This document shows positions 19,681-60,329 of a DNA stretch of 64,000 bases, one piece after another. The position numbers were made by a program, and so were the translations under genes. The stretch is from Candidatus Bathyarchaeota archaeon (lineage in GTDB: Archaea > Thermoproteota > Bathyarchaeia > Bathyarchaeales > Bathycorpusculaceae), in NCBI GenBank assembly GCA_963717465.1, contig OY970340.1, forward strand, positions 32,001-96,000, given 5' to 3'. Under the pieces are notes generated by a model that saw only the letters and a list, made by a program, of their open reading frames with translations, did not search any database and was not told the DNA's origin. Numbering within the stretch: the first letter of the stretch is position 1; each line of letters opens with the position of its first letter.

Positions 19681-20766
19681 TTATTGACTATCAGATTCTT
19701 TTGGAACATTTTTTTTCTTTGACCTAATATGAATTGGCTTGCTGAAAGCAGAAGAAATAGAATGGAACAGCTTACCAAAAACGGCACCAATACCATGAAA
19801 AACCTTACTAAAATCAATAGATCGCCTAGCTTTTCCCTTAACAGCCTCCTTCGGAACACTCTCCTTCTTCGACTTATGACCTAACTTCCCAAGAGCTGAA
19901 GAAGCAAGATGAAATAGCTTCCCGAAAGCAGCAGTAACAAAATTGAATGCCTTCCCGGGATCAAGGGATCTAACATGCATCTTTCCAGTAGTTTTTGCTT
20001 TCTTTGTTCGAGTTTTAAGAGCAGCAGTTTTAGATTGCAATCGTAGAAAAGAACTCATACCCTTTGAAAATTGCATCATAATTTCATCATGCAGAGAAGG
20101 TTTATCAGATTCTTTTGGAACATTTTTTTTCTTTGACCTAATATGAATTGGCTTGCTGAAAGCAGAAGAAATAGAATGGAACAGCTTACCAAAAACGGCA
20201 CCAATACCATGAAAAACCTTACTAAAATCAATAGATCGCCTAGCTTTTCCCTTAACAGCCTCCTTCGGAACACTCTCCTTCTTCGACTTATGACCTAACT
20301 TCCCAAGAGCTGAAGAAGCAAGATGAAATAGCTTCCCGAAAGCAGCAGTAACAAAATTGAATGCCTTCCCGGGATCAAGGGATCTAACATGCATCTTTCC
20401 AGTAGTTTTTGCTTTCTTTGTTCGAGTTTTAAGAGCAGCAGTTTTAGATTGCAATCGTAGAAAAGAACTCATACCCTTTGAAAATTGCATCATAATTTCA
20501 TCATGCAGAGAAGGTTCAGTAGGAATACTTGAATATCCATGCAGAGTGACAAGGGCATCTACGCTTCCAATTTCAGCTAACGCCTTAACAACCTCGATGC
20601 GTACTTCTAATTTCTTCGATGCGTCAAATATTTTTGATAAACCTTTGACGTTCGCTCTAATCTTCAAGAGATTAATTTTATCAGAATCAGATTTTTTTGA
20701 CTTAAAAAATGGCAACTTCAACTTAATCTTGCTCAAATTTAATTTTGGCAAATTGAAAAATCGCAA
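19681..20766 (-). CDS. Very basic repeat protein: HEAT-like motif plus amphipathic-helix repeats, with an internal 138-aa duplication
   Basis: ORF track; EVRIEVVKALAEIG HEAT-like segment; repeated FGKLFHxxSSA. Confidence 0.55.
   Translation of the reverse strand: MRFFNLPKLNLSKIKLKLPFFKSKKSDSDKINLLKIRANVKGLSKIFDASKKLEVRIEVVKALAEIGSVDALVTLHGYSSIPTEPSLHDEIMMQFSKGMSSFLRLQSKTAALKTRTKKAKTTGKMHVRSLDPGKAFNFVTAAFGKLFHLASSALGKLGHKSKKESVPKEAVKGKARRSIDFSKVFHGIGAVFGKLFHSISSAFSKPIHIRSKKKNVPKESDKPSLHDEIMMQFSKGMSSFLRLQSKTAALKTRTKKAKTTGKMHVRSLDPGKAFNFVTAAFGKLFHLASSALGKLGHKSKKESVPKEAVKGKARRSIDFSKVFHGIGAVFGKLFHSISSAFSKPIHIRSKKKNVPKESDSQ
19689..20516. repeat. Perfect 414-bp tandem duplication (19689-20102 and 20103-20516)
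   Basis: The two copies read identically; period 414 bp = 138 codons. Confidence 0.95.
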
Positions 20767-47232: not shown

Positions 47233-47496
47233 AGCCTAATTAACCATAAAATCATAAAAATAAGTTTTTGGTGCACGCATATGCTTTAAGAAAGAAGTAA
47301 GTTCCAGATTTGAACTAGAGCCTATAGCGCGTGGGAAGCATAGTTTATCGGTGCTCTTTTTATGTGAGCATTAATTATTTTTTGAAGTCCAGCATTTTCT
47401 TTTTCGACTCTATTAGAGCACAATACAACATGAGAAAATACATTATCAAAAAAGAATCATTCAGATTAAATAGAAAAAAGGTAGGAGTTTTTGTAT

Positions 47497-48864
47497 TTAA
47501 CCCCAAGTTGGGTAGTCAAAACCCATATCTTTGAACTCTTTTGTCATCTTGTTATAATGGTCTATGTACCATTTGTTGGGTCGAAGAGTTTCTTTGTCGT
47601 AGAATTCGTATAGGTCCTTCGGTGGAGGTTGGCCGCCCATGGGCACAATAGTCGGCTCATATTTTTTGATAAGATCTTTAATCACCTTGATTCCTTCGCT
47701 TACCTTCATTCCAGCTGCTGCTCTTGTCACTTCACTTCCAAATCTTATGTCCAAAGCAGGCATACCGCCGACCATCCACATTCCCTCCATTCCTGATATG
47801 CAAGAAGTTATGCAGGCGGCTGCTGTAGCCAAATAATTGGTTTCAGTGGCAAATTGGCCAACTGCGCCTAATCCGCTGGAAATCCATGGATTTCTTGTGT
47901 TTCTTTCTGCGGCTAAAGCCATGGCTGAATTGCACCAAAAGACATCTGTTCCTTCGTAACGATTATCGAGCGTGTTGCTCATTGCCTGTGTGAATGAGCC
48001 ATCGGCGTAAGCCATCTGACCCAGCGAATGAGCCATCCCTTCAAGAACCGCTTCTTCAGGACAACTGATATACGCATATAGAGTAGGGCTAGTACTCTGC
48101 CATGGAACAATCCCATGCTGCATAGCAAAATAGGCAAGATTAAGCCTATCAATGACTACCCTCATGTCCTGCAGTATATGCACTGGCATCATACAGTTTT
48201 TAGGCGTATAGTAGCCAGGATCAAAAGCCTGCATTAACGCAACCATGCTCGTACCAGTTTCTGGGAATCCGAGTAACATGCCAGGTCTTCCAGCAGCGCG
48301 TGTGCCTGCAGTCATCAGTTCACATTCGGCGTGAACTGCTAGTGACTCAGTAGGCGTTGCATACGTTGATTTCTGACCAAAAGACGCCTCCATTATTGCA
48401 GTCATCATTCCATCCGTAGTCGGTTCACGAGCAGTAAGATAAACGGCGTCCCTCCACTGTTGTATGTCACTTCCCATCCATCCGCCCGCATTTAGACAGT
48501 ATGGATGCTGCTTATCCTCAGGACCCCTAATATGCATCCTCAGAATATCTCTGCCTGATCCCCATTCAACCTCATGCTTTCTTGTTTTAGCAACCTCTCT
48601 AAGTTCATTTTCACTAAACTTAACTATGTGCTTAGTATCTTTACAGTACAACCCGCACTGAACAAGCAACTGTATGCTGCCTTCAAAAATAGCATCAGCC
48701 ATCTGCGGATCTGACATTATTGGTTCGCCTGGTTCCCATTTGATCTTGTAGTCTTGGACGAGTTTCTTTAGTATTGTTGGAAAATACGTGTTCTCAAATT
48801 CATCTTCTTTCATTATTGGACCCGTTCTTGTTCTTTCTAAAACTTCCCACAAAAGATGTCCCAT
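47497..48864 (-). CDS. Monomethylamine:corrinoid methyltransferase (MtmB) homolog lacking pyrrolysine
   Basis: ER..TG, CGLYC.DT..IVKF.E.E, G.GRD, AGRPGM...PET, EV.RAAAG and YD.ETL.P match MtmB throughout; no in-frame TAG. Confidence 0.85.
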   Translation of the reverse strand: MGHLLWEVLERTRTGPIMKEDEFENTYFPTILKKLVQDYKIKWEPGEPIMSDPQMADAIFEGSIQLLVQCGLYCKDTKHIVKFSENELREVAKTRKHEVEWGSGRDILRMHIRGPEDKQHPYCLNAGGWMGSDIQQWRDAVYLTAREPTTDGMMTAIMEASFGQKSTYATPTESLAVHAECELMTAGTRAAGRPGMLLGFPETGTSMVALMQAFDPGYYTPKNCMMPVHILQDMRVVIDRLNLAYFAMQHGIVPWQSTSPTLYAYISCPEEAVLEGMAHSLGQMAYADGSFTQAMSNTLDNRYEGTDVFWCNSAMALAAERNTRNPWISSGLGAVGQFATETNYLATAAACITSCISGMEGMWMVGGMPALDIRFGSEVTRAAAGMKVSEGIKVIKDLIKKYEPTIVPMGGQPPPKDLYEFYDKETLRPNKWYIDHYNKMTKEFKDMGFDYPTWG

Positions 48865-49013
48865 ATTTCTTTCTCCTTTTTCGGGATTAAAATCCCAAAT
48901 TAATATGGGTTAATTAATCATTTAATGCTTGTGCAACCGAGCTATTTTTCAATCGCTAAGCATGGACGCGGGCTTAAAGAAACATTAATTTATAATGCTT
49001 GTTTTTTCAAAAA

Positions 49014-49910
49014 CTATACTTTCTGGATTTTGTTCATTGGGCGAGGCAAGATGGGATCTGTGCCGTCAATAGCTCGATCAAGGGCTTGCAGAAGCTTTTC
49101 CTTGTTTTCCGGCAGCATCCCTTCCAAGTGTAGGCAGTTGGATGGGTGAATTGACGTGAAGCCGCAATGTTTCAGCTCCAGGTCCTTAATTATGATGCGC
49201 ATTTCCTGTAGTATTTCCATATCGGTCGGGATCTCGAATTCACCATTTTGAACTTTCTTATGCAATTCTGTTCCGGGGATTACCATAATCGTTAATGCGC
49301 CGATGTAATCGGGTTGGATTTCGTTACAAATACGTGCGGTGCTTTTAGCGTGCTCCAGAGCCTGGGGTGTTCTTCCAGCTAGTCCTAAGATAACGGTGAT
49401 AAACAGCTGAATGCCAGATTCATGCACCTTTTTTCCGGCTTCAACCATTTGATCATAAGTCACGCCTTTGCGTACTTCACGAAGCACTTTTTCGTCCCCG
49501 CTCTCAACGCCCAGATGAGCCTCAACGAGTCCATGTCCGCGTAGTTGCTTCAGTTCAAGTGGTGCCTTGTTTAGGATACTTGCAGGGCTGGCATAGGTCC
49601 CTACATAGAAGAGGCTTGGAAAGGTATCATACAGGCGACCCAAAATCTTTACCAAGCTTGAAGTAGGCATAGTTAGAGCATCCCCGTCTCCCAGAAACAC
49701 CTTCTTGACATCTCCATAGTATTCTTTTGCCAGCTTGATATCCTCAAGAATTTCATCCAAATTGCGGATCCGGTAGCGTTTGTCTTTATACATTGAACAA
49801 AATGTGCATTGGTTATGACTGCAACCGATGGTGCACTGAAGAATGTAGTCGTCTCCTGCAATGTGCGGGCTATAAATATCCCCTTCATAACGCATAATAA
49901 AACCGCCCAT
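49014..49910 (-). CDS. Radical SAM protein
   Basis: MRYEG.IY, QCTIGCSHNQCTFC (CxxxCxxC), FLGDGDAL and LGVESGD motifs. Confidence 0.9.
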   Translation of the reverse strand: MGGFIMRYEGDIYSPHIAGDDYILQCTIGCSHNQCTFCSMYKDKRYRIRNLDEILEDIKLAKEYYGDVKKVFLGDGDALTMPTSSLVKILGRLYDTFPSLFYVGTYASPASILNKAPLELKQLRGHGLVEAHLGVESGDEKVLREVRKGVTYDQMVEAGKKVHESGIQLFITVILGLAGRTPQALEHAKSTARICNEIQPDYIGALTIMVIPGTELHKKVQNGEFEIPTDMEILQEMRIIIKDLELKHCGFTSIHPSNCLHLEGMLPENKEKLLQALDRAIDGTDPILPRPMNKIQKV

Positions 49911-50065
49911 TTGAGGCGCCGCACAAATTGTTTATAATGTTAATGCCCCATTGAGTAATTGTAAACGTTTATCTTAAGTTTATTTGAAAAGCTGACTTCG
50001 GTAAACATAAAACCATGCACTTAACGGAAGCAAAGCTGAAATATGGGCAATTGACGAATATTTTT

Positions 50066-50458
50066 ATGCGTTGTAAAAACTGCGGCGTCTGCTGCATAAA
50101 CACAGAAATGCTGCTTAGCAACCAAGATATAAAACGCCTAACGGAAAAAGGCCACCTAAAAGAAAACTTCATGCAAATCGATCAAGATGGCTATGCACAA
50201 CTGAAAAACATAAACGGTCACTGTGTGTTCTACAATATCGCGAAAAGCAAGTGTAATATCTATGAAGATAGGCCGGAAGGATGCCAAATCTACCCAATAA
50301 TTCTTGACGAAGAAAAAGGCATCGTATTTGACGAGGGTTGTAGCGCAACAGAAACAATAACGGATGAGGAAAAACAGGCGAAAGGCAAAAAAGTAATCAC
50401 ACTTCTGCAAAAAATGGATCAACAGGCAAAATCACGAGCCTCCAACAGTCTTAAATAA
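50066..50458 (+). CDS. YkgJ-family cysteine-cluster protein
   Basis: CKNCGVCC, CVF, CNIYEDRPEGCQIYP motifs. Confidence 0.88.
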   Translation: MRCKNCGVCCINTEMLLSNQDIKRLTEKGHLKENFMQIDQDGYAQLKNINGHCVFYNIAKSKCNIYEDRPEGCQIYPIILDEEKGIVFDEGCSATETITDEEKQAKGKKVITLLQKMDQQAKSRASNSLK

Positions 50459-50844
50459 ATGATTTTGTAAAAAAGAAAGTCGTCAACAAAGTCAAAAGAA
50501 AAAATGGCGCTATTAGAGCAATGAAAAATAGAAATTTAGAAAATATCCTACGGTTTCACATTTAGATTGTGATTTTTAAGAAAAAATAGATTTTTGAATG
50601 CGTTCGCAGTCCATGAATTGTCCTCCAGCTACAGCGCTACCCTTTATCTACACGCGCTATTGCTCTCATTAATTGTCGCTTTGTTTGTCTGTCTCTGTTT
50701 TTGTCCGTTGTTCAATGAAGGTTTTGTTTCAAGGGTTTCAGGCATCTCATCAATTTTCAGGAAATGAGTTACACAGGAGTTGTATCTGATTAAACGAGCT
50801 AGTCTTTAAGAGTTCACATATTTATTCTCAAAAGGAGGGATTAT

Positions 50845-51474
50845 ATGGAAGTAGGTAAGCTGAAAAAGGACCTCGAAGATTTAAGCAGTTTTGCTTCGAA
50901 AAATGGTGCAACTGAAGTAAAAGTGATAGAATCCAGCAAAGTGGTTGTTGACGAACGAGTTCAACTGAAATGTGCATATCCTCCTTGTATTTACTATGGA
51001 AAAAGTCTTATGTGTCCACCTTATACGCCCAAAGCTAAAGATTTTCGAGAAATTGTTAAAAAATATGATTTTGCCATCGCCGCACAAATAACCCGTGCTT
51101 ATGATGACGAATTAAAAAAATACCTTAATGTAAATGGAGCAAAATTTCAAGATGTTATAAATAATCCTGAATTTCAAAAAGAAATGAAAGTTGTTATGGA
51201 TGATGTAACTAAAAGGCTTAGAAACCTCATTGCTTCCATAGAGAGAGAAGCTTTTAGCAGAGGGTATTATCTATCAATTGGACTTGGATCAGGCACCTGC
51301 TTATTATGCGAAACATGCGAATTAAAATATCCATGTAAACATCCATGGGAGGCTAGACCAAGCATGGAAGCTATGGGGATCGATATTACTAGAACTATGA
51401 GGAATGCGGGGCTACAGTTGACTTGGAATTCAGGAGAGAAAATCACCTTAAATTGTCTTGTTTTAATTGGTTAA
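50845..51474 (+). CDS. DUF2284-family predicted metal-binding protein
   Basis: VDERV.LKC...C..YG..LMCPP, ERE.F..GYY, G.C.LC..C and C.HP..ARPSMEAMGID motifs. Confidence 0.85.
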   Translation: MEVGKLKKDLEDLSSFASKNGATEVKVIESSKVVVDERVQLKCAYPPCIYYGKSLMCPPYTPKAKDFREIVKKYDFAIAAQITRAYDDELKKYLNVNGAKFQDVINNPEFQKEMKVVMDDVTKRLRNLIASIEREAFSRGYYLSIGLGSGTCLLCETCELKYPCKHPWEARPSMEAMGIDITRTMRNAGLQLTWNSGEKITLNCLVLIG

Positions 51475-51757
51475 ATTATGCGCGCTTAATAGCGCGCTAA
51501 AAAAATAGAGCTCTTTTAGCTTATTGTAAAGAATGGTTGCAATTGAAGCATAGTACCCAGTCCGCGATAGTATACGTACAATATTTTAGACATAGACATA
51601 CATAAATAGAGACAGACATCACACAGAGATAGAGATACATATCACACATATCTCTCAAATAAAAGATAAAAGTAGAAAAAAATAGCGCGCTGTTGATTCA
51701 ACTCTATCCCTAACTCTATTGAAGAATCCTAAACTCTTGTGTAACTAACAATTACGA

Positions 51758-52834
51758 TTAACCTTCATAGCCCCAATAATAATTAGTTCCTCCATCGATT
51801 GCGGAAGCTCGAACTTCTTTGCCAGAGTAGCACTTGCCAACAATAAGTAGTTTTGAACCGCATTTAGGGCAGGCGTACTCCGAAGTCAAGTTGTAAGTCA
51901 AATGGAACACATGTTTCCCACATCGACTAATCAACTGCTCGCCGCAGCTTGGGCAATTTGTGTCTCTTTCATACCTGTTATAAACGTACTTAAGCCCTAA
52001 ACGTCTAAGGTCATTGGATAGTTTTATTACGTTTACCTCAGTATTACTTTGTTCCCTTTGTTCCATTAAGCACTGCGCTCTAAACGGCAGTAAATGCAAC
52101 GGTGTTTCAGGACCTAAATTATCCAATATCCATTTGCCAAGTTTATGCAACTCTTGATTCGAATCACCGTGTTCAAGCATCACTAAATTTGTTAATTCGA
52201 CATGAACTTTTTTATCCCTAAATGTTTTAACACATTCAAATATAGGCTGAACATTGTGCACATCGCAGAGTTCTCTATAAAACTGACTGTTTCCTGAACC
52301 TTTAAAATCTACAGTTACTGCATCAATATAGGGCGAAATCATGTTTACAGCCTCAGGAGTCATGTAACCGTTGGTTACTATCGTGGAGTATAAGCCGTTT
52401 TTGTGTGCAAGTTTGGCTGTGTCATATGCGTATTCAAAGAAAATTGTTGGTTCATTATATGTGAAGCTTATCCCCTGGCAGTCATTTTTTAGGGCACTTT
52501 CAACAATTTCTAACGGCGAAAGCTTTTCAATTGCTACAAATTTTTTTTGGTTGCTCAATTCGTGGTTTATGCAGAATTTGCATCTGAAATTGCAGCTTGT
52601 TGTGCCAAAAGAAAATGTGGCAGACCCGGGGTTAAAGTGGTATTGCGCTTTTTTCTCTATATTATCAATAAATCTTAAACTTAAATAACCATAAATATCG
52701 GTTAATAACTTGGCGTTTTCATTTCTTCTCACATTACAATATCCGACTTTGCCCTCAGGAATAACACATCTTCTAGCGCAAAGGTCACAGCGCACGCCTA
52801 AGGTTGTTGGGGAGTAAAACATGGCTTCTTTCAA
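51758..52834 (-). CDS. AmmeMemoRadiSam-type (PFL-activase-like) radical SAM enzyme, paralog 1
   Basis: CDLCARRC..GYC.VR.N, IEKK..YHF.PG, CNFRCKFC, FTYNEPT, TNGY and C-terminal CPxCG pairs. Confidence 0.9.
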   Translation of the reverse strand: MKEAMFYSPTTLGVRCDLCARRCVIPEGKVGYCNVRRNENAKLLTDIYGYLSLRFIDNIEKKAQYHFNPGSATFSFGTTSCNFRCKFCINHELSNQKKFVAIEKLSPLEIVESALKNDCQGISFTYNEPTIFFEYAYDTAKLAHKNGLYSTIVTNGYMTPEAVNMISPYIDAVTVDFKGSGNSQFYRELCDVHNVQPIFECVKTFRDKKVHVELTNLVMLEHGDSNQELHKLGKWILDNLGPETPLHLLPFRAQCLMEQREQSNTEVNVIKLSNDLRRLGLKYVYNRYERDTNCPSCGEQLISRCGKHVFHLTYNLTSEYACPKCGSKLLIVGKCYSGKEVRASAIDGGTNYYWGYEG

Positions 52835-52880
52835 AAATTTACACCATTAGCCCCTAAAAATCTAAAAAAAATATTCTTCT

Positions 52881-53225
52881 TTAACTTATAGTAAAAAATG
52901 GCTGCAATTTCATCAAAAAGCCCATTTCTTTAACATCAAATTTGAATTCACCAGAGGGCATCATGTCTTTAAGAGACTTTTTTTTATCTAGCAACGCTTC
53001 AAGACAATCTGCTTTTGCAAAAATGAAGGCCAAATCATACTGACCTTTAGGTTTGATAGCCTTTTCATTTTTTTCTATTTTCCCGTCTGGAGCTATCTTC
53101 CACCACCATCCGATATTTTCGTCTGTAAAGACAAATTGTAGAGATTCGTCAACTCCAACAAGCAAAAAGGAATTTTCTTCAGCATATTCTAACATTCTTT
53201 TCATTACAACCTCAGCAGTGGTCAT
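52881..53225 (-). CDS. SCP2 (sterol-carrier/lipid-binding)-like protein
   Basis: LQFVFTDE...WW.I...G, D..F......L..LL.KK.S....M.SG.FK and LMKL pattern; 114 aa. Confidence 0.6.
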   Translation of the reverse strand: MTTAEVVMKRMLEYAEENSFLLVGVDESLQFVFTDENIGWWWKIAPDGKIEKNEKAIKPKGQYDLAFIFAKADCLEALLDKKKSLKDMMPSGEFKFDVKEMGFLMKLQPFFTIS

Positions 53226-53248
53226 TTAATTTCACCATTCACCAATAT

Positions 53249-53296
53249 AGGAATTGTTTGTTTATTAATTCTAGTATTTACAGAAAGTAAAAGCAG
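53249..53296 (-). promoter_or_regulatory. Shared promoter/operator element, copy 1 (upstream of the SCP2 gene)
   Basis: Aligns over about 48 bp with 56115-56162; the core attaattctagta begins 39 bp upstream of the start codon. Confidence 0.7.
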
Positions 53297-53418
53297 AGTA
53301 GATTCGCCAAGTAAATGTACTTTCTCAAGCAAAATCTTTTGAGCTCACGCGCTTTACTTTCTAAAAATAATTTTTTTTTAAATATAAAAAGGTAGGCTTC
53401 TCAGGAATTAACGCTCTG

Positions 53419-53892
53419 TTAGCCTGAGCCTCTTCCTTTTTGGTGTTCCTTAAAGACTACCAGCTCGTCAACTACTGGTTCGGCAGCCTCTTTAAACCAT
53501 GCAGCAGCACCTTCACCCTGCATAAGGGTTTTCAATTCTGCCGCAAGATTAGAAGGCTTCACAATAAACAGCCACCCCTTATCATAAGGATCCTCCATGT
53601 ACCCAGCGGCCCCAAGCTTAACAACTACCTCATTCACTTCCAAAATCTCCCCCGAAACTGGAGCAGGAATAGGCCCAGTATACTTGCGAGATTCCAAAAT
53701 CCCCATTTTCTGCTTTTGCGTCACTTTTGTTCCCTTAAATGAGAGCTTTAAATAAAAAACCTCATGAGCCCCCTTTGCTATGATATCATCAAAGCCAATC
53801 CTTACAGTTCCATCAGTTTCCAGCTTAATCCATAAATGGTCTTTACTATAGTATAGCTCTGGTCGAAACTCGAATCCTAAGATATCTGTCAT
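53419..53892 (-). CDS. Glycine-cleavage-H-like lipoyl-carrier protein (stand-alone)
   Basis: LYYSKDHLW, RIG, ESRK (lipoyl Lys kept), APVSGEILEVN and DPY..GW motifs. Confidence 0.88.
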   Translation of the reverse strand: MTDILGFEFRPELYYSKDHLWIKLETDGTVRIGFDDIIAKGAHEVFYLKLSFKGTKVTQKQKMGILESRKYTGPIPAPVSGEILEVNEVVVKLGAAGYMEDPYDKGWLFIVKPSNLAAELKTLMQGEGAAAWFKEAAEPVVDELVVFKEHQKGRGSG

Positions 53893-53948
53893 TGAAATTA
53901 TCCACTCTTATAGTCTTAATGCGATAAAACAAGAAAAAAAGATAAGGA

Positions 53949-55310
53949 TTAAGTCTCCGCCTCTTTCTCTAACCAACTGGGAACCTTCACTGGAAACTTA
54001 TATACCTCTAAGGCTATTCTGTCCAATTCCTCCAAGTTCGCCAACGGAGTCTGAATATCAACATTACCGCCACCGCCACCGCCTGTCATTCTCAGGCCTT
54101 TCTGTTCAGTACTTGCAGTCCCACGCGCAGATCTTAATAAGCCTTTACGCATCGCTTCTCCACCCATCAACACTTCTTGTGTACCAAATGCAGCAGCCCA
54201 AAGGATTGATTGGTTTTTTGTTTTGTCGCGATTCTCAAACATGCGAATAGCGTCCTCATAAGCCGGGAGACCGACATCAGCACAAAGCCCTCCTCCTATA
54301 TGCTCATCAAAGTATTTAATGAACAACTCAGCGGTCTTTGCGTTGCAAAGTGGAGCAACAAAAGGAGGAATGTCCTTCTCTGTACAGAAATCTAAAATTG
54401 GTCCAAAGTGATAATCATAGGTTCTTGTGAACTCTTCAAAAGTTAAGTAAGCGCCTCCACCATCACAGTAAAACATCATGTTGCCTTTCGGATTCCCCTT
54501 AGTCATCATCGGTGCAGAAACAGTCAGCACTTCGTGTAATCTATCAATCTTCCTACAGACGTATTTCGAAACGGCTTTTAAAGCCAACTCTGCCAGTGGC
54601 GGATTCTTTCGCACATCCATCAAGAATTCTTTTGGTCCTCTAAGAAAAGTAGCAGAAGCAATTGGACCAGTACAGGCAGAACCAAGCGTTGGAAACTCCG
54701 GATTTATCTTACTAATTTGTTTTACAAGCCAGAGATAATATGGGTAATACCCTCTCAGGGCGGGGTCAGGTATGTTATCCATGAAAAATTCCAGCCTTGC
54801 CTTGGCTTCTGCTGGGTCTTTAGTTTGTGCGAAGCCTTCAACAGCCAAAGGCGGTCCATGCTCAACGTTCCTGAATTTACTGGTCAGCACTTCTTCTCCA
54901 AAGCTGACAGCACTGCAAAAGTGATAATCACCAACAAACTTTGAAGTTCTCAGCTCAAAACAAATTAAATGTAGCTCTGGATATTCACGAAAGTCATTGG
55001 CGTGGATTACTGAGGGCGTTTCAGCATAGCTGTCAAGTATCCTTCCATTATAGGCTGCACCTAATGATACACCAAATGGAAGGCGGTCAAGGCCAAGGCT
55101 ATTGAGGTCAGCTGGGGCGTCATCATACCAACATTTCATTATTCTTTCGCGTGGCATCAGTTTCTCCCTTTGAGCCTTCTCCACTGCTTTCTGGTGGCAT
55201 CTCTCAATTATGAGTTCTTCATAACCTGTCCACTCATGAGAAAAACCTGCCGCGTTCCAAGTGCGGGGATATTGCCCCCTGATTTCTACACTATTATAGT
55301 CCTGATTCAT
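53949..55310 (-). CDS. Divergent UroD/MtaA-fold (corrinoid methyltransferase-like) protein A
   Basis: MPRER, PDP..RG, GP...A.FLRG..EFLMD...NP and TPL.NL motifs; adjacent to the corrinoid protein. Confidence 0.7.
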   Translation of the reverse strand: MNQDYNSVEIRGQYPRTWNAAGFSHEWTGYEELIIERCHQKAVEKAQREKLMPRERIMKCWYDDAPADLNSLGLDRLPFGVSLGAAYNGRILDSYAETPSVIHANDFREYPELHLICFELRTSKFVGDYHFCSAVSFGEEVLTSKFRNVEHGPPLAVEGFAQTKDPAEAKARLEFFMDNIPDPALRGYYPYYLWLVKQISKINPEFPTLGSACTGPIASATFLRGPKEFLMDVRKNPPLAELALKAVSKYVCRKIDRLHEVLTVSAPMMTKGNPKGNMMFYCDGGGAYLTFEEFTRTYDYHFGPILDFCTEKDIPPFVAPLCNAKTAELFIKYFDEHIGGGLCADVGLPAYEDAIRMFENRDKTKNQSILWAAAFGTQEVLMGGEAMRKGLLRSARGTASTEQKGLRMTGGGGGGNVDIQTPLANLEELDRIALEVYKFPVKVPSWLEKEAET

Positions 55311-55364
55311 TTTTTATACCTCTTTTTATTTTTTTATTTTAATTTAAAAAAACTTGATTTGGTT

Positions 55365-56090
55365 TTAACTACGTTTTTGTCGTTGTTCTTTGAGCACTCT
55401 CATCAGTTCATTGCAGTTGCTCAAACCCGCAGTGATACTGTTGCCATGTGCGTCTGTCCCGTACATTTTAACGTCGGTTTCAAAAGTTGCTTGACCTCCA
55501 GTTATAATTTTCACGTTGTCGCGCATGCCGAGTTTCTTTAGCTCATCAACGGTCTCTTTCATAACTAGCCTTGCCATTCCCATTGAGCAACTTAAAGCTA
55601 TGATATCAGCTTTAGAGTTCCTGGTTTTGTTTACGAATGTTTTGGCAGGGATATCATAACCTAAGTCTATCACTTCATATCCAGCTGCTGCCAAGATGTT
55701 GCCCACCAAGCTTTTTCCTATGTCATGAATGTCTCCTTCAACGGTTCCAATCACTACTTTGCCTGGAGATTCCACTTTTACCATCCTTTTGGCTAATTCA
55801 GGCTTTAAAACTCCAACAGCATTCGTTAGGCATTCAGCTATCATTACAAGCTCTGAGAGCATTACTTCCTTTTCAGGTTGCATTTTTTGCTTTTCGTAAT
55901 CAATTTCACGAGCTACATCATAGATACTTCTGCCGCAAATATCCTTTGTCCATACTAGCAGATGGTTCTCTAGAAGCTCTTGCGGATTGGCTCCTGCCTC
56001 TAAAGCTGCTTTAGTTAATTCAGCTACTTTTATGTCATCCTGTGCATAAAATGCATCCTTGAGGTCTTTTATCGCTATTTCTAAAGCCAT
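55365..56090 (-). CDS. Methyltransferase cognate corrinoid protein (MtmC/MtaC-like)
   Basis: N-terminal cap domain; GTVEGDIHDIGKSLV (DxHxxG), DLGYD, ALS and ITGG motifs. Confidence 0.93.
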   Translation of the reverse strand: MALEIAIKDLKDAFYAQDDIKVAELTKAALEAGANPQELLENHLLVWTKDICGRSIYDVAREIDYEKQKMQPEKEVMLSELVMIAECLTNAVGVLKPELAKRMVKVESPGKVVIGTVEGDIHDIGKSLVGNILAAAGYEVIDLGYDIPAKTFVNKTRNSKADIIALSCSMGMARLVMKETVDELKKLGMRDNVKIITGGQATFETDVKMYGTDAHGNSITAGLSNCNELMRVLKEQRQKRS

Positions 56091-56114
56091 ATTTTTGCCT
56101 CTTTGACAATTACA

Positions 56115-56162
56115 AGGATTGCATTGTTAATTAATTCTAGTAATTACAAAAATTAAATACAG
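56115..56162 (-). promoter_or_regulatory. Shared promoter/operator element, copy 2 (upstream of the corrinoid gene)
   Basis: Aligns with 53249-53296; the core begins 40 bp upstream of the start codon. Confidence 0.7.
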
Positions 56163-56295
56163 GAGAGGGAGCGCGGGTAATATTTTTTCTTTTCTCTTTA
56201 GAAGCGGACGACATGTATTGAATTAGCCTTCGCTTCTTTTTTGAACGATGTAGCTAACACAGCTTTCAGTAGTTCTTTCTATTAATCGCACATCC

Positions 56296-57573
56296 TTAAG
56301 ATCCGAGCGGATAGCTGCAGATCTTCTCATACGTCAATTCTTCATTACGTAGACGGTAGGCAACCTCAAGGTTCTCAAGAGGAGTCATAGCATCGCCAAT
56401 AACCCCAGCGTTTGTCCTATGACCCTTAGTTTGATATTTGCCGAAAACCTTAGCCATCCTAATCAACTCATCGCGAATCTTTTCAACAAGACCATTCAGT
56501 ATTATCTTGGTGTTAGTAGCCGTTATTGCGTAGACTTTGCTATATTTAATAGCTACTGGGTATCCTTGCTCAATCGGCGGATGCTCTTGCATACAACTAA
56601 CAGCTCCTCCTTTATTCTCTTCCAAAATCCTCGCAACTTCATTCATGTATTCAGGGGGAGCAACAGGTGCAATGTATGGCGCAAAACCTTTTCTTGCAGC
56701 ATAAGGAATACTATCACCATAATGAAGTGGCAGTGTCTGCTTAAACTCGTCCAGAGTCATATATGCAGCAGAATCACACCACATTAAGCGGTTACCTTTA
56801 CCGTCTGCACCTATTGATTGTTCAAGAATTTTAGTGGCAGAATCAATTTTTTTATTCTGATAAATCGTAGCGATCTCGAGGGCCAATTCAGCCACTTCAG
56901 GATTCGTACGTAAATCCAGCAAGAATTCATTAACACCCCGAATGAAGCAGGCTGTGGTTATGGCACCAGCGCATGTCGACATCGTTATTGGAAGCACATC
57001 ACCCATTATTTTTTTGCCTTCTGTGCACATCCAATTGTATGATGGTCTTAAACCCCTCAGGTTTGGATCAGGTAGATTATCCATCAGCCATTCTAAATCT
57101 TCCTTATTTTTAGCGAATGGTTCGACAACTAACGGTGGACCATGAGCAATAGAACGAAACTTTCTTGATAGCACTTCTTCCCCAAAGCTGGACGGCGTGA
57201 AAAAGAAATCATCCGCAGGAAATTTCACCATATGGTACATCCTTGCAAGAAAATCCAAGTTTGGAAAGTCCAGCAAGTCTCTGTAAGAAATAGCAGGGGG
57301 ATACGGTGTAGCGAACGATTCGAATATGGGGTTAACAAGACCTCCTGCGCTTGAAGCTTGCCCAAGTACCTGATCATACGGGTCATCAGTGAAAAGAGTT
57401 TTAGTCCATCTTTCGCGCGGCATCATCTTTTGATTCTTTAGTGTATTCAGGATCTTCTCTCGCGCTCTCTCAATCATCAATTCTTCAGTTTCTGTCCAAT
57501 GGTATCTGTAGAGAATATTCCAATTTTTTGGATAATCATTCTCTACTTCTTCAGATTCGAAATTCAGTCTCAT
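56296..57573 (-). CDS. Divergent UroD/MtaA-fold (corrinoid methyltransferase-like) protein B, paralog of 53949..55310
   Basis: MPRER, SFGEEVL..KFR...HGPPL.VE, PDP..RG, FIRG..EFL.D...NP and TPLENL motifs. Confidence 0.7.
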   Translation of the reverse strand: MRLNFESEEVENDYPKNWNILYRYHWTETEELMIERAREKILNTLKNQKMMPRERWTKTLFTDDPYDQVLGQASSAGGLVNPIFESFATPYPPAISYRDLLDFPNLDFLARMYHMVKFPADDFFFTPSSFGEEVLSRKFRSIAHGPPLVVEPFAKNKEDLEWLMDNLPDPNLRGLRPSYNWMCTEGKKIMGDVLPITMSTCAGAITTACFIRGVNEFLLDLRTNPEVAELALEIATIYQNKKIDSATKILEQSIGADGKGNRLMWCDSAAYMTLDEFKQTLPLHYGDSIPYAARKGFAPYIAPVAPPEYMNEVARILEENKGGAVSCMQEHPPIEQGYPVAIKYSKVYAITATNTKIILNGLVEKIRDELIRMAKVFGKYQTKGHRTNAGVIGDAMTPLENLEVAYRLRNEELTYEKICSYPLGS

Positions 57574-57656
57574 CTTTCAACTTCCCATTCCTTTTTGAAC
57601 ACGCATTAAAGAGAATTGAGCTTTCCTAAGTATCAACCATTCTAGTGTGTGCCTTT

Positions 57657-58622
57657 CTAATTATGACCATTCTCTAATGATAAATCAATATTGCCACATC
57701 GCATGAAAGGAGTAAACACCCAAGAGTTAATCTTGTAATCTGCAGAATAAAACTGCGGTTTTAGATCCGCGTTTAGATAACTATGTAATAAATTTATGTT
57801 TGTTGGCGCAACCGTGCGATCTCTCCACATGTTTTCGAAAATGAATTTAGCCTGAATTACCATCGCTCGATTATTGGTCACGATTGCCTTACTTATATGA
57901 CCATAATTGTCTTTTTCAACTGGAAGAATTAGCTCTCTTCCATCACCTAGTAAAAATGATGGGAGAACTTCGGGATCCGCCTCAATGAATTGCTCTTTGA
58001 AATTTCCGTATTTTATAAGGTTTTTTGCAAACTTTTCTAAAAAGTCCCTATTTGCTCGAGTATTGGCGGAAATTAATCTATATTTTGATCCTTTTTTAAT
58101 CGAGGTTCTTAGAGTTTTATAGAATTTTTCTAAGTCAGGTATTGCCTTCTGCCAATCATTTATCATTATTCTCAATTGCCCAAAATTCTTGTTAGGAAAG
58201 TCATTGATTAGTGAACATACGGTATTCACATTGTCTATGACCGAAAACTTATTAGCTTCCTCTGGAATATTGGGTTCAATCATTTTTAATGATGACATTA
58301 TTGCTTCCTTGCTGCGTTTGAGCAACATGACCTCAGAACTTTTGGACTCTATTAGAAGGTTGATTGCCTTTTCCAAAGAGATAGTGGAGAAAATAGCTGG
58401 ATGACCAAGTGATGAATCGACAAAACCTCTATTCTCTAGATTCTGAAGGTTGCGGTAAACTTGAACTTTGCTAAGTCGTATTGCTTTCGAAATATCCTTG
58501 GCTTTTTGAGGACCTGATCTAGCTAACATAACGTATATTTTTGCTTCTTGTTCTGCCAATCCTAATTCTACAAACTTTGCAACTATTTGATTTGGGTCCA
58601 ATCTTCCTTTGCACCAACTCAA
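57657..58622 (-). CDS. TrmB-family transcriptional regulator
   Basis: LGL..QEAKIY..L...GP..A..IS......QVYR.L..LE.RGFV helix-turn-helix; C-terminal effector domain ending IFE.MW. Confidence 0.88.
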   Translation of the reverse strand: MSWCKGRLDPNQIVAKFVELGLAEQEAKIYVMLARSGPQKAKDISKAIRLSKVQVYRNLQNLENRGFVDSSLGHPAIFSTISLEKAINLLIESKSSEVMLLKRSKEAIMSSLKMIEPNIPEEANKFSVIDNVNTVCSLINDFPNKNFGQLRIMINDWQKAIPDLEKFYKTLRTSIKKGSKYRLISANTRANRDFLEKFAKNLIKYGNFKEQFIEADPEVLPSFLLGDGRELILPVEKDNYGHISKAIVTNNRAMVIQAKFIFENMWRDRTVAPTNINLLHSYLNADLKPQFYSADYKINSWVFTPFMRCGNIDLSLENGHN

Positions 58623-58780
58623 CTTTGATAGTCGAAAGGTCTAAGGCATATAGCACAACTGCTACTTCAAGTTATTACTTAAGCCTTTTCAAAGGCCATT
58701 CGGTCAAACACACCCGCACATCATGAATTGACTCATATTTAATAAAATATCAACAGATTTTAAATTTTTGGTATTTTGAC

Positions 58781-58920
58781 CAATTTTTCTCTTAAAAATT
58801 CTTTGAGCAGCAGAGCAACCATTAAAATTTTAATCTCCCTCAAAATTCTCACCTTTTACTCTCCCTCATCTCTCTAAGACAAGTAAACAGATAATCAACC
58901 AGACAGACAAACAAACAAAA
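58781..58920. repeat. Left arm of an imperfect inverted repeat (partner at 60211-60309)
   Basis: ttctcaccttttactctccctcatctctct (58846-58875) is the reverse complement of 60246-60273 apart from a 2-nt insertion. Confidence 0.8.
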
Positions 58921-59084
58921 ACTGCTTCTTATAAGCGTTCAATGGAGCGCGCTAGTGCTTTTAGATGTTGAAACAAAAAATCTAAACAGGACATAATGAA
59001 AGACAACGAAAAACTTTTATCGATTCAGATTGGCAAGTTTAAATAAAAGTCCACTAATTTGGACATGGAGGTTGGCGTCATCTG

Positions 59085-60152
59085 ATGCCCTCAGTTGCGA
59101 TGTTGTACACACCACTTTCGTCGGCTGTGCGGTGTGATCTTTGCGCTAGAAGATGTGTTATTCCTGAAGGTAAAGTTGGGTTTTGCAATGTGCGAAGAAA
59201 CGTTGACGGTAGATTACTAACAGATATCTATGGCGCTTTAAGTTTACGTTTTATTGATAATATAGAAAAAAAAATGCTATATCATTTTAATCCCGGGTCT
59301 TCTACCTATTCGTTTGGGACAACTTGCTGCAATTTTAGATGTAAATTCTGCATAAACTTTGATTTGAGCGGAGTAAATGAATTTGTTCCAATAGTGAAAA
59401 TGCTGCCATCCGACATTGTGGAAAGCGCCATAAAGAATAACTGCCAAGGGATAAGCTTCACATATAATGAGCCGACCATTTTTTTCGAATACGCTTACGA
59501 TACCGCCAAGCTTGCCCATGAGCAGGGTCTTTATACAACAATAGTTACAAACGGTTATATGACGCCAGAGGCCGTGAAGATTATTTCCCCTTACATGGAT
59601 GCCGTAACTATAAATTTCAAAGGTTCAGGAAACAGTCAGTTTTACAAAGAAATATGCGCAGTATCTAATGTGCAGCCCATATTTGATTGCATTGAAATGT
59701 TTAGAGATAAAAGAGTTCATATCGAAATATCAAATTTAGTTATGCTTGAACATGGTGATTCGGATCAAGAAGTGCATAAACTTGGCAAATGGATATTGGA
59801 TAATTTAGGTCCTGAAACACCGTTGTATTTGCTGTCTTTTATTGATCAGTGTTTAATGGATAATAAGGTAGCTGGAAGGCACTTAATAGATTTATCCAGG
59901 GACATCAGAGGTTTAGGGCTTAAGTACGTATACAACGATTTTGAAAGAAACACCAATTGCCCAAGCTGCGGTGAAACGTTGATTAAGCGAGGAGGGAAAG
60001 TTCCATACTATTTGACATACAACTTGACATCGGATTACGCCTGCCCTAAATGCGGCATAAAACCGCCTATTATCGGCAAGTGCTACTCTGGCAGATTAGC
60101 TCAGCCAATCGAAGCTGAATGGGATGGCTATATATATGACTATGGAGGTTAA
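59085..60152 (+). CDS. AmmeMemoRadiSam-type radical SAM enzyme, paralog 2
   Basis: Same motifs as 51758..52834, with long identical peptide and DNA stretches. Confidence 0.9.
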   Translation: MPSVAMLYTPLSSAVRCDLCARRCVIPEGKVGFCNVRRNVDGRLLTDIYGALSLRFIDNIEKKMLYHFNPGSSTYSFGTTCCNFRCKFCINFDLSGVNEFVPIVKMLPSDIVESAIKNNCQGISFTYNEPTIFFEYAYDTAKLAHEQGLYTTIVTNGYMTPEAVKIISPYMDAVTINFKGSGNSQFYKEICAVSNVQPIFDCIEMFRDKRVHIEISNLVMLEHGDSDQEVHKLGKWILDNLGPETPLYLLSFIDQCLMDNKVAGRHLIDLSRDIRGLGLKYVYNDFERNTNCPSCGETLIKRGGKVPYYLTYNLTSDYACPKCGIKPPIIGKCYSGRLAQPIEAEWDGYIYDYGG

Positions 60153-60210
60153 GCGCTTGATGGGAATACGCGCACATAAGGATATTTTAGAAACACCCAC
60201 TATCACGCTT

Positions 60211-60309
60211 TTCTGTTTATTTGTCTTTGATTGTCTGTTTGTTTCAGAGAGATGAGAGAGTAAAAGGTGAGAAATTACAAGAATTAATTTTTGAGAGAAA
60301 AAAAATTGA
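60211..60309. repeat. Right arm of an imperfect inverted repeat (partner at 58781-58920)
   Basis: agagagatgagagagtaaaaggtgagaa core; flanking ttgattgtctgttt and gagaaaaa..ttg also mirror the left arm. Confidence 0.8.
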
Positions 60310-60329
60310 AATTTAATCGTAAATAAAGG

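Follow-up and report, generated by a model that had tools for sequence, protein, structure and literature searches.

The 64,000-nucleotide stretch analysed here (the window) comes from the single contig of the 3.05-Mb genome of a Candidatus Bathyarchaeota archaeon (GCA_963717465.1, OY970340.1, positions 32,001 to 96,000), in which many genes are frameshifted. At 47-60 kb the window holds a locus that the initial annotation had read as a corrinoid methyl-transfer island coupled to a lone lipoyl carrier, centred on a minus-strand run of a TrmB regulator, UroD-fold enzyme B, a corrinoid protein, UroD-fold enzyme A, a GcvH-like protein, an SCP2-like protein and an AmrS-type radical S-adenosylmethionine (SAM) enzyme. 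All open reading frame (ORF) positions given for the locus were confirmed, and the coordinates together with Pfam, NCBIfam and fold matches agree with this run. Its core is a cassette that is real, conserved, rare and undescribed in the literature we searched, which was open access (CC-licensed PMC articles and bioRxiv, without supplements; subscription papers could hold a description of the combination). The features of the cassette in the window are as follows.

57657..58622, minus strand: TrmB-family regulator (PF01978); usual cassette member
56296..57573, minus strand: UroB, a divergent UroD/MtaA-fold enzyme whose AlphaFold model matches MtaA (4ay7); core
56125..56147, minus strand: 23-nt upstream element, copy 1, ahead of the corrinoid protein gene, with a match also upstream of SCP2
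55365..56090, minus strand: corrinoid protein (PF02310) with DIHDIG (DxHxxG) and an S-C-S-M strand; core
53949..55310, minus strand: UroA, a divergent UroD/MtaA-fold enzyme with conserved C213, C282, D283 and D418; core
53419..53892, minus strand: cassette-type GcvH-like lipoyl carrier (PF01597), K70 in ESRKYTGP; core
53259..53281, minus strand: 23-nt upstream element, copy 2, ahead of the SCP2 gene
52881..53225, minus strand: lipid-binding protein of 114 residues with a predicted SCP2 fold; usual cassette member

What is conserved falls short of the 13 kb first proposed: a UroD/MtaA-fold enzyme, a corrinoid protein, a cassette-type GcvH, SCP2 and usually TrmB. The set of enzyme, corrinoid protein, GcvH and SCP2 is present in six copies in the source genome (G000), which is more than chance would give, with gene order and orientation varying among them. 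TrmB accompanies five of the six, none being seen at the copy whose enzyme gene holds two in-frame TGA codons (the TGA copy), and is present in most foreign copies; three of the own-genome enzyme copies are frameshifted or truncated. With an enzyme profile at E<=1e-12, 8 of 120 genomes of the genus gave a match: the core enzyme is intact in G000, G411 and G433 and broken in G478, while G016, G387, G432 and G435 carry members of a sister clade. A draw of 401 genomes from the order (core or sister match in 8 at E<=1e-12) adds G614 and G628, which represent two further genera, and a draw of 401 genomes from the class gave three matches at E<=1e-20, none of them outside the genus. Intact cassettes outside the source genome are thus those of G411, G433, G614 and G628, across three genera, and G411 has four of them on one 63-kb contig. 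Five of six metagenome loci (two being the same place) have the cassette GcvH beside the corrinoid protein and enzyme; on the sixth, a 2.7-kb contig, just the latter two genes are present. Three other genome loci proved to be places already counted. In some cassettes two enzymes share a single GcvH. The family is small, with 18 representatives at E<=1e-30 among 1.84 billion. The core of the neighbourhood on which the initial annotation had staked its reading is therefore conserved, in six own copies and four foreign genomes; of the homologs whose co-location it proposed to check, the family of both enzymes recurs with GcvH and SCP2, and AmrS does so in only one foreign island. In G478, L072:7705-14686 carries a pair of inverted cassettes with many frameshifts, made up of SCP2, TrmB, corrinoid protein and enzyme; no GcvH is detectable there.

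Neither UroA nor UroB has a Pfam match at E<=0.1, and PDB sequence searches with UroA or the family profile as query gave nothing useful. The AlphaFold model of UroB (pLDDT 89) finds its best match in MtaA of Methanosarcina mazei (4ay7; Foldseek E 3.5e-11), on which it superposes as a UroD-type TIM barrel (VIA Z 30.5, root-mean-square deviation 2.8, 326 aligned); the clusters nearest to UroA in the ESM Atlas are URO-D clusters, and the two proteins are 35% identical. Against the cut-off of 235.4 bits for TIGR01463/NF004889, UroB scores just 15.7 and UroA has no match. The MtaA zinc site of His-x-Cys plus Cys (HxC, PGCG) appears not to be kept in either: when zinc-motif columns are taken from an own-genome MtaA-type protein mapped to 4ay7, the alignment places YIAP/FVAP and Gly/Asp in the HICG and PGCG columns of UroB/UroA. 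Conserved in the aligned enzymes (UroA numbering) are C213 (29/29), C282 (28/29), D283 (29/29) and D418 (28/29), all predicted to lie near the ends of barrel strands, and UroB retains the equivalents C201 and C266-D267. Within the UroD fold, a His-Cys-Cys site marks S-methyltransferases and a carboxylate substitution marks O-methyltransferases (PMC10418091); judged by sequence, the cassette enzymes fit neither class. The core enzymes and the TGA copy form one branch (FastTree support 99), separate from the MtaA-type rows. The TGA copy itself (L005:12988-14226, minus strand) is a basal paralog whose two in-frame TGA codons fall at the two conserved cysteines, and a tRNA-Sec gene lies 5.4 kb away at L005:19639-19724. 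It is probably a two-selenocysteine enzyme, and TGA at the conserved cysteines with tRNA-Sec nearby is what would be expected if these residues were soft ligands or nucleophiles.

The corrinoid protein has the DxHxxG motif and a B12-binding domain with a cap, and its next strand reads SCSM instead of SxL. S-C-S-[ML] is found in 17/17 core corrinoid proteins, SACL in that of the TGA copy and SAIL in all four sister-clade proteins; the corrinoid proteins differ in step with the division between core and sister clade. Degenerate corrinoid-protein homologs with weak B12-binding matches adjoin the cassette GcvH in two islands (L148:3702-4442, L032:1646-2338). The 114-residue ORF has no SCP2 match in Pfam, but SCP2 domains are the top Foldseek matches of its model (pLDDT 89.6) and three own-genome paralogs pass PF02036. 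SCP2 lies beside cassettes with and without GcvH and by MttB-type corrinoid sets; because it also occurs in the GcvH-free sister cassettes and MttB-type sets, it is tied to the transferase rather than to the lipoyl lysine and most likely handles the transferase's hydrophobic substrate. A role for SCP2 as a lipoyl or octanoate chaperone is disfavoured by the GcvH-free sister cassettes.

Intergenic gaps in the window cassette are 46-205 nt, with T-runs inside several. The 23-nt element has only two matches in the 3.05-Mb genome at <=4 mismatches, upstream of the corrinoid and SCP2 genes, and is probably a regulator site or promoter; that it is shared points to co-regulation of the two genes from separate promoters. 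A palindrome, GTTAC-N4-GYAAC, occurs at <=1 mismatch in 9/40 cassette upstream regions against 16/1536 background regions, the motif having been read from the same, related sequences that were then scored; the upstream regions of the corrinoid, GcvH and SCP2 genes in the window match it at 3-4 mismatches only. A promoter scan with a sigma-70 model, which is unsuited to an archaeon, was at chance (32 versus 35.4 +/- 5.4). An Rfam scan of window positions 44-64 kb gave no match, and the window has no tRNA genes.

The initial annotation held that the GcvH-like protein keeps its lipoyl lysine, and in an alignment with solved H proteins K70 of the ESRK motif indeed falls on the lysine of their ESTK. 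Cassette GcvH proteins form a clade of their own (14/47 tree rows, support 99/96) with the motif ESxKYTGP, ESxK being present in 14/14 aligned members. The 12 residues before the motif carry a net charge of +2 to +4, versus -2 to 0 in housekeeping copies, and the isoelectric point (pI) is 5.2-8.0 versus 4.4-5.0; it is a basic surface that targets LbpA carriers to their dedicated ligases (10.64898/2026.10.01.755906). Eight of the 14, including the window copy, have no cysteine at all, and the two LbpA cysteines are absent. Some GcvH is found in 111/120 genus genomes, whereas the cassette type (>=247 bits, the next score being 139 and the remainder, in 108 genomes, <=120) occurs only in G000, G411 and G433; outside the genus it is found in G614 and G628. 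These three genus genomes are the ones that have an intact core enzyme. Enzyme and GcvH distances correlate with rho 0.63 over 14 hand-paired cassettes, 0.42 without the TGA copy and 0.39 (p 0.006) in 11 sets without near-duplicates, which speaks for inheritance as a unit, not for binding; a complex prediction for UroA and GcvH, both supplied as alignments, scored 0.18 against a mark of 0.32 and is counted neither for nor against binding. On these sequence comparisons the cassette GcvH forms a clade that is tied, and dedicated, to the cassette enzymes.

GcvP and GcvT were each found in 0/5 genomes (64-100% complete; G614 and G628 outside this sample), with search controls positive in 10/14 and 11/14. 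A housekeeping GcvH (111/120) and LipS2 (109/120) nonetheless persist in the genus, as a second orphan lipoyl system; the housekeeping GcvH loci are L110:10371-12201, L111:8815-10592 and L007:8858-9274, and in G411/G433 the next ORF after the gene resembles a pyridine-nucleotide disulfide oxidoreductase (by eye). A third lipoyl set at L006:2947-18988 (GcvH with ESQK, OsmC, LipS2, LipS1, LplA) adjoins a true MtaA-type enzyme with intact zinc motifs; this region also holds SCP2-like genes, an MttB-type enzyme, corrinoid proteins, MtrH and RACo and is another pairing of GcvH with methyltransferases. The second GcvH of G016, roughly 11 kb away from its sister cassette, is of the ordinary ESVK kind and sits by a transposase-like ORF.

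The companion genes support the cassette better than the window alone showed. In G411, G433 and G614 it abuts LplA, LipS1, LipS2, an unknown gene, an ETIK-type GcvH, LipS1 and LplA, followed by HdrA-C-B and MvhD-G-A, and in G628 the same lipoyl-assembly and Hdr-Mvh genes lie on both sides of it; LplA/LipS1/LipS2 and HdrABC-MvhDGA therefore share a contig with the cassette in 4/4 other genomes, with two ligases and two LipS1 homologs per island. In the source genome, Hdr genes flank one cassette. LipS2 is found in 109/120 genus genomes, with more than one match in five, in two of which the matches are halves of one broken gene, and a second intact LipS2 was found only in G000, G411 and G433; in G614 and G628 the cassette contig carries a second LipS2, at 2 and 11 kb from the enzyme gene. 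The mere presence of lipoylation genes was rejected as a marker, LipS2 being so common that only the second copy is specific. RamA is present in three islands (598.6, 621.7 and 499.4 bits against a cut-off of 500), and the neighbours of the TGA copy in the source genome include RACo and LplA. The initial annotation had seen no activase, pterin-binding MT2, GcvP/T/L or ligase in the window. No activase, MtrH, GcvP/T/L or ligase was seen among the ORFs scanned in 44-61.6 kb, the rest of the window having been read by eye for the same genes, and the five-genome result bears out a GcvH without GcvP/T partners; activases and ligases (RACo, LplA, LipS1/S2) do occur elsewhere in the genome, and RamA in three other islands, so that missing activases and a 'lone' carrier have to be given up.

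Among the four other carrier genomes (79-100% complete) we found no McrA, no ComD above cut-off and no Pfam URO-D/MtaA-type enzyme. McrA was found in 1/120 genus genomes (G000 only) and 0/2 of G614/G628, and scores as TIGR03256/TIGR03259 type; a cassette that serves an alkyl-coenzyme M reductase or needs methyl-coenzyme M reductase (MCR) was rejected, McrA being confined to G000. There, G000:C1:1660000-1686600 (L107, L108, L008) holds mcr genes, methanogenesis-marker-like ORFs (by eye), ComD and MtaA-type genes, and mcrA and mcrB appear split by frameshifts.

Other genes recur near cassettes. A NifH-NifD fusion with a NifK-like gene (L002:4728-8255, L043:18170-L044:1689, L069:8827-12346, L031:1-3112) is linked to the cassette in G000, G411, G433 and L031 and lies below all NCBIfam cut-offs. 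The NifK-like protein matches NifE, nitrogenase and 9d9u/9fmg alike (E ~1e-16 to 1e-17), the last two being what we take to be Mar structures (database title: 'Nitrogenase'). Its gene is found in 17/120 genus genomes, 14 of them without an intact cassette, and was not seen in the G614/G628 loci, which makes the nitrogenase-like genes weak candidates for the core. Extra thermosome (TCP-1) paralogs lie beside cassettes at L002:9453-11120, L003:4922-6868, L005:9198-10823, L044:1873-5669 and L026:9605-11386, and a MoxR AAA plus VWA pair recurs with them; these are possibly dedicated folding or metal-loading helpers. Two proteins of about 320 and 230 residues without a Pfam or NCBIfam match (L043:1749-2729, L043:5509-6201) recur in the lipoyl-assembly block.

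The sister clade supplies a contrast. All four of its loci (16-20 kb) have the corrinoid protein, TrmB, SCP2, RACo and MtrH in cis and no GcvH, whereas no MtrH was found in the core-cassette loci read, own or foreign; GcvH thus stands where the acceptor enzyme stands. Because of such gene-set contrasts, the lipoyl carrier can be placed in the position of MtrH in the sister cassette and of coenzyme M (CoM) in methylotrophic methanogens, and we infer that a lipoyl thiol may be the methyl acceptor. Our preferred reading, a tentative one to which we give not quite an even chance, is that a methyl or alkyl group is transferred to the dihydrolipoyl arm, whose reduced state Hdr-Mvh maintains. The LplA and LipS1/LipS2 set would lipoylate the cassette GcvH, SCP2 would handle a hydrophobic donor, and the UroD-fold enzyme, via its new Cys/Cys(Sec)/Asp site, would move a methyl or larger alkyl group from the donor onto the Co(I) corrinoid protein. 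The methyl group would then pass from the corrinoid to a dihydrolipoyl thiol by a ping-pong route, for which MtsA/MtsB is the precedent; there MtsA catalyses both half-reactions (10.1101/548461), and two enzymes sharing one corrinoid protein, as in the window, may split them. MtaA methylates non-native dithiols, lipoate going unmentioned in the part of that source cited here (PMC13618148). RamA/RACo would reactivate the corrinoid, and HdrABC-MvhDGA, judging by gene content, would reduce the lipoyl disulfide with H2.

Several observations weigh against this reading. S-methyl-lipoyl is a dead end unless the methyl group is removed, and no identified gene makes a disulfide for Hdr to reduce. The His-Cys-Cys zinc site typical of UroD-fold S-methyltransferases is absent, and MtpA, predicted to be bifunctional, was proved to act only as a first methyltransferase (MT1) (10.1101/548461). 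Most rows of the sister clade share the two conserved cysteines, although this clade resembles an ordinary MT1 with MtrH, which means that the pair is not diagnostic of thiol methylation; MtrH is present in 5/5 genomes tested and could take the methyl group in trans. The initial proposal that the lipoyl arm acts in place of CoM draws strength from the conserved GcvH and the link to lipoyl-assembly and Hdr-Mvh genes, but the source genome has MCR, ComD and MtaA-type enzymes, and lipoyl there would run beside CoM, not replace it. The dedicated LipS2 of the source genome is encoded in trans, some 175 kb away from the closest cassette. The corrinoid-GcvH correlation is rho 0.48, 0.22 and then, without near-duplicates, 0.09 (p 0.31). 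One cassette-type GcvH in G433 has no enzyme in its 14-kb locus, and G478 has broken enzymes and no cassette-type GcvH. Finally, the islands of G411 and G433 are 90-96% identical, so the five carrier genomes are not independent and represent perhaps three or four events.

The main alternative, which we hold possible though rather unlikely, gives the UroD-fold enzymes the plain MT1 role of demethylating hydrophobic methyl ethers or thioethers. The corrinoid would hand the methyl group to MtrH in trans and so to a pterin, and the lipoyl protein would serve just for redox or sulfur transfer between HdrABC-Mvh on one side and the released thiol or the Cys/Sec pair on the other. The MT1-like sister clade with its MtrH and SCP2 would fit, as would the MtrH of all five genomes tested, the basic patch and higher pI in which the cassette GcvH resembles LbpA (10.64898/2026.10.01.755906, PMC6067878) and the proposal of GcvH as Hdr disulfide in Culexarchaeia (PMC9723716). 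However, the island already has a separate ETIK GcvH within its Lpl-LipS-Hdr block, the cassette GcvH was duplicated with the enzyme (rho 0.39-0.63), the foreign core-cassette loci read hold no MtrH, and the two LbpA cysteines are missing. Neither this alternative nor methylation of the dihydrolipoyl arm explains what oxidises that arm; reductive methyl release would. In an MCR-free reductive cycle, R-X would pass via the corrinoid to R-S-lipoyl(SH) and on to R-H (methane if R = methyl) and lipoyl disulfide, with release by the corrinoid/Cys-Cys enzyme or the linked nitrogenase-like reductase, and HdrABC-MvhDGA would re-reduce the disulfide with H2 and yield reduced ferredoxin. This cycle would supply a disulfide for Hdr-Mvh in genomes without MCR or ComD and would give a place to the NifH-NifD fusion and NifK-like gene linked to the cassette in G000, G411, G433 and L031; MarHDK homologs are frequent in methyl-sulfur gene clusters (PMC10418091). 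We nevertheless consider it improbable, as 14 of the 17 genus genomes with the NifK-like gene have no intact cassette, none was seen in the G614/G628 loci, and the protein passes no NCBIfam cut-off. To our knowledge, methane release from a lipoyl thioether has no enzyme precedent, which also counts against it.

Taken with its island, the cassette would in that case be a coenzyme M- and coenzyme B (CoB)-free, MCR-independent analogue of methyl-reducing methanogenesis, a notion to which we likewise grant little probability. S-methyl(alkyl)-dihydrolipoyl-GcvH would carry a thioether and a free thiol on one arm (compare CH3-S-CoM + HS-CoB), its cleavage would give methane (or R-H) and lipoyl disulfide, and HdrABC-MvhDGA would close the cycle with H2 and electron bifurcation. 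Doubtful to a like degree is that the cassette tailors a protein-bound acyl group, a fatty acid from SCP2 being ligated to the GcvH lysine and its chain methylated or otherwise modified by the corrinoid enzyme, so that the product would be a variant cofactor or lipid and not part of catabolism. SCP2, by its top fold matches, binds fatty acids, sLpl ligases start from free octanoate (10.64898/2026.10.01.755906), and each island has its two ligases and two LipS1 homologs; on the other hand, SCP2 also accompanies GcvH-free sister cassettes and MttB-type sets, and the presence of as many as six diverged copies in a genome fits a range of substrates better than a single step of biosynthesis.

The remaining features of the locus lie outside the conserved unit.

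51758..52834, minus strand: AmrS-type radical SAM enzyme, copy 1 (TIGR04337); accessory, not core
59085..60152, plus strand: AmrS-type radical SAM enzyme, copy 2, a duplicate of copy 1; accessory
50845..51474, plus strand: DUF2284 metal-binding protein (PF10050); possible accessory
47497..50458, no strand assigned: non-pyrrolysine MtmB, radical SAM enzyme and YkgJ; neighbours outside the conserved unit

The second AmrS, DUF2284, YkgJ, the other radical SAM enzyme and the non-pyrrolysine MtmB are all present as annotated, by family matches and by a Gly at the pyrrolysine position of MtmB. The two AmrS copies score 251.6 and 249.9 bits against a cut-off of 220 (TIGR04337, AmmeMemoRadiSam radical SAM) and, at 73.5% protein and 78.7% DNA identity, are a local duplicate. 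It is highly improbable that the twin AmrS enzymes, MtmB, YkgJ and the third radical SAM enzyme belong with the cassette to a single 13-kb system. It is true that AmrS copy 1 begins 46 nt beyond SCP2, that another cassette of this genome has an AmrS paralog (67-69% identical) some 8 kb away, and that the G628 island holds both AmrS and DUF2284. Yet in 22 foreign cassette loci AmrS (33-36% identity) occurs only in the overlapping L026/L148 of that island, with none such near the cassettes of G411, G433 and G614; G411 and G433 have one AmrS each, away from cassettes. DUF2284 has a 55% homolog in one foreign island (L147, G628), and MtmB, YkgJ and the third radical SAM enzyme have no tblastn match in the 22 loci; the source genome encodes at least five MtmB paralogs at other places. 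The evidence does not favour the twin AmrS enzymes, MtmB, YkgJ or the third radical SAM enzyme as parts of the system. AmrS lies beside a ThiF + JAB + DUF7665 trio in two genomes (L148:762-3189, G000:C1:2779469-2782777), the G000 AmrS being in pieces and its trio matched by eye. Elsewhere in the window, positions 19681-20766 encode a 361-residue ORF with an internal tandem repeat of about 130 residues, which may be an assembly duplication.

Lipoate has few known roles, in five characterised enzyme complexes and, with LbpA, in sulfur oxidation (PMC6067878); a corrinoid transferase with its own lipoyl protein would lengthen this list. If methylated, this protein would be a protein-bound one-carbon carrier in place of CoM, and the cassette is a candidate source of the thiol/disulfide used by HdrABC-Mvh in archaea without CoM/CoB. 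Since the family is rare (8/401 order genomes), its weight is mechanistic rather than global; its parts are small soluble proteins, open to direct testing.

Several described systems resemble the cassette in part. The sHdr-LbpA system (PMC6067878, PMC10332631) likewise pairs a GcvH-like carrier outside glycine cleavage with a dedicated ligase and LipS1/S2, close to an Hdr complex, and this carrier too has a basic surface near the lysine; the lipoate assembly genes of the islands match the LipS1/S2 route (PMC10332631). The cassette GcvH differs in having no terminal cysteines (absent too in some archaeal LbpAs; PMC6067878), in its HdrABC with an Mvh-type hydrogenase and in its link to a corrinoid transferase, and no sulfur transferases (TusA, DsrE) were recognised in the cassette loci read. 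Culexarchaeia have a GcvH beside HdrA2B2C2, with a lipoyl disulfide proposed as Hdr substrate and no CoM/CoB; that GcvH sits in a membrane hydrogenase cluster, and the part of the paper cited here describes no link to a corrinoid transferase (PMC9723716). With the H protein of glycine cleavage the cassette GcvH shares the lipoyl fold and lysine, GcvP and GcvT being those not found in five genomes.

On the methyltransferase side, type 1 mlp clusters combine several UroD-fold enzymes with corrinoid protein and RACE, have no pterin-dependent second methyltransferase (MT2), and show selenium and MarHDK links (PMC10418091). By their description, with His-Cys-Cys retained and about 30% identity to MtbA, the Mlps stand apart from the cassette enzymes; the text of that paper has no mention of GcvH, lipo- or SCP. 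Demethylase systems made of an MT1, a corrinoid protein, an activase and an MtrH-type MT2 (Mto type; MtgBCA of Bathyarchaeia, PMC10989822, from the same archaeal class) have the layout of the sister clade, whereas the core cassettes encode GcvH and lack a cis MtrH; MtgB, of about 300 residues and described as without homology to known MT1s (PMC10989822), is by that description distinct from the cassette enzymes. Compared with MtaA, MtbA and MtsA, the cassette enzymes are only 17-18% identical, are 420-454 residues long, lack the His-x-Cys/Cys zinc site by alignment and conserve other cysteines, and the cassette adds a lipoyl protein and SCP2, CoM genes not being found in four of five carrier genomes. 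It nevertheless shares with the MtaA/MtbA and MtsA/MtsB systems of Methanosarcina the fold, a DxHxxG corrinoid partner and RamA/RACo and, as in MtsA/MtsB (10.1101/548461), has no separate MT2; it would work most like a soluble corrinoid-to-thiol transferase.

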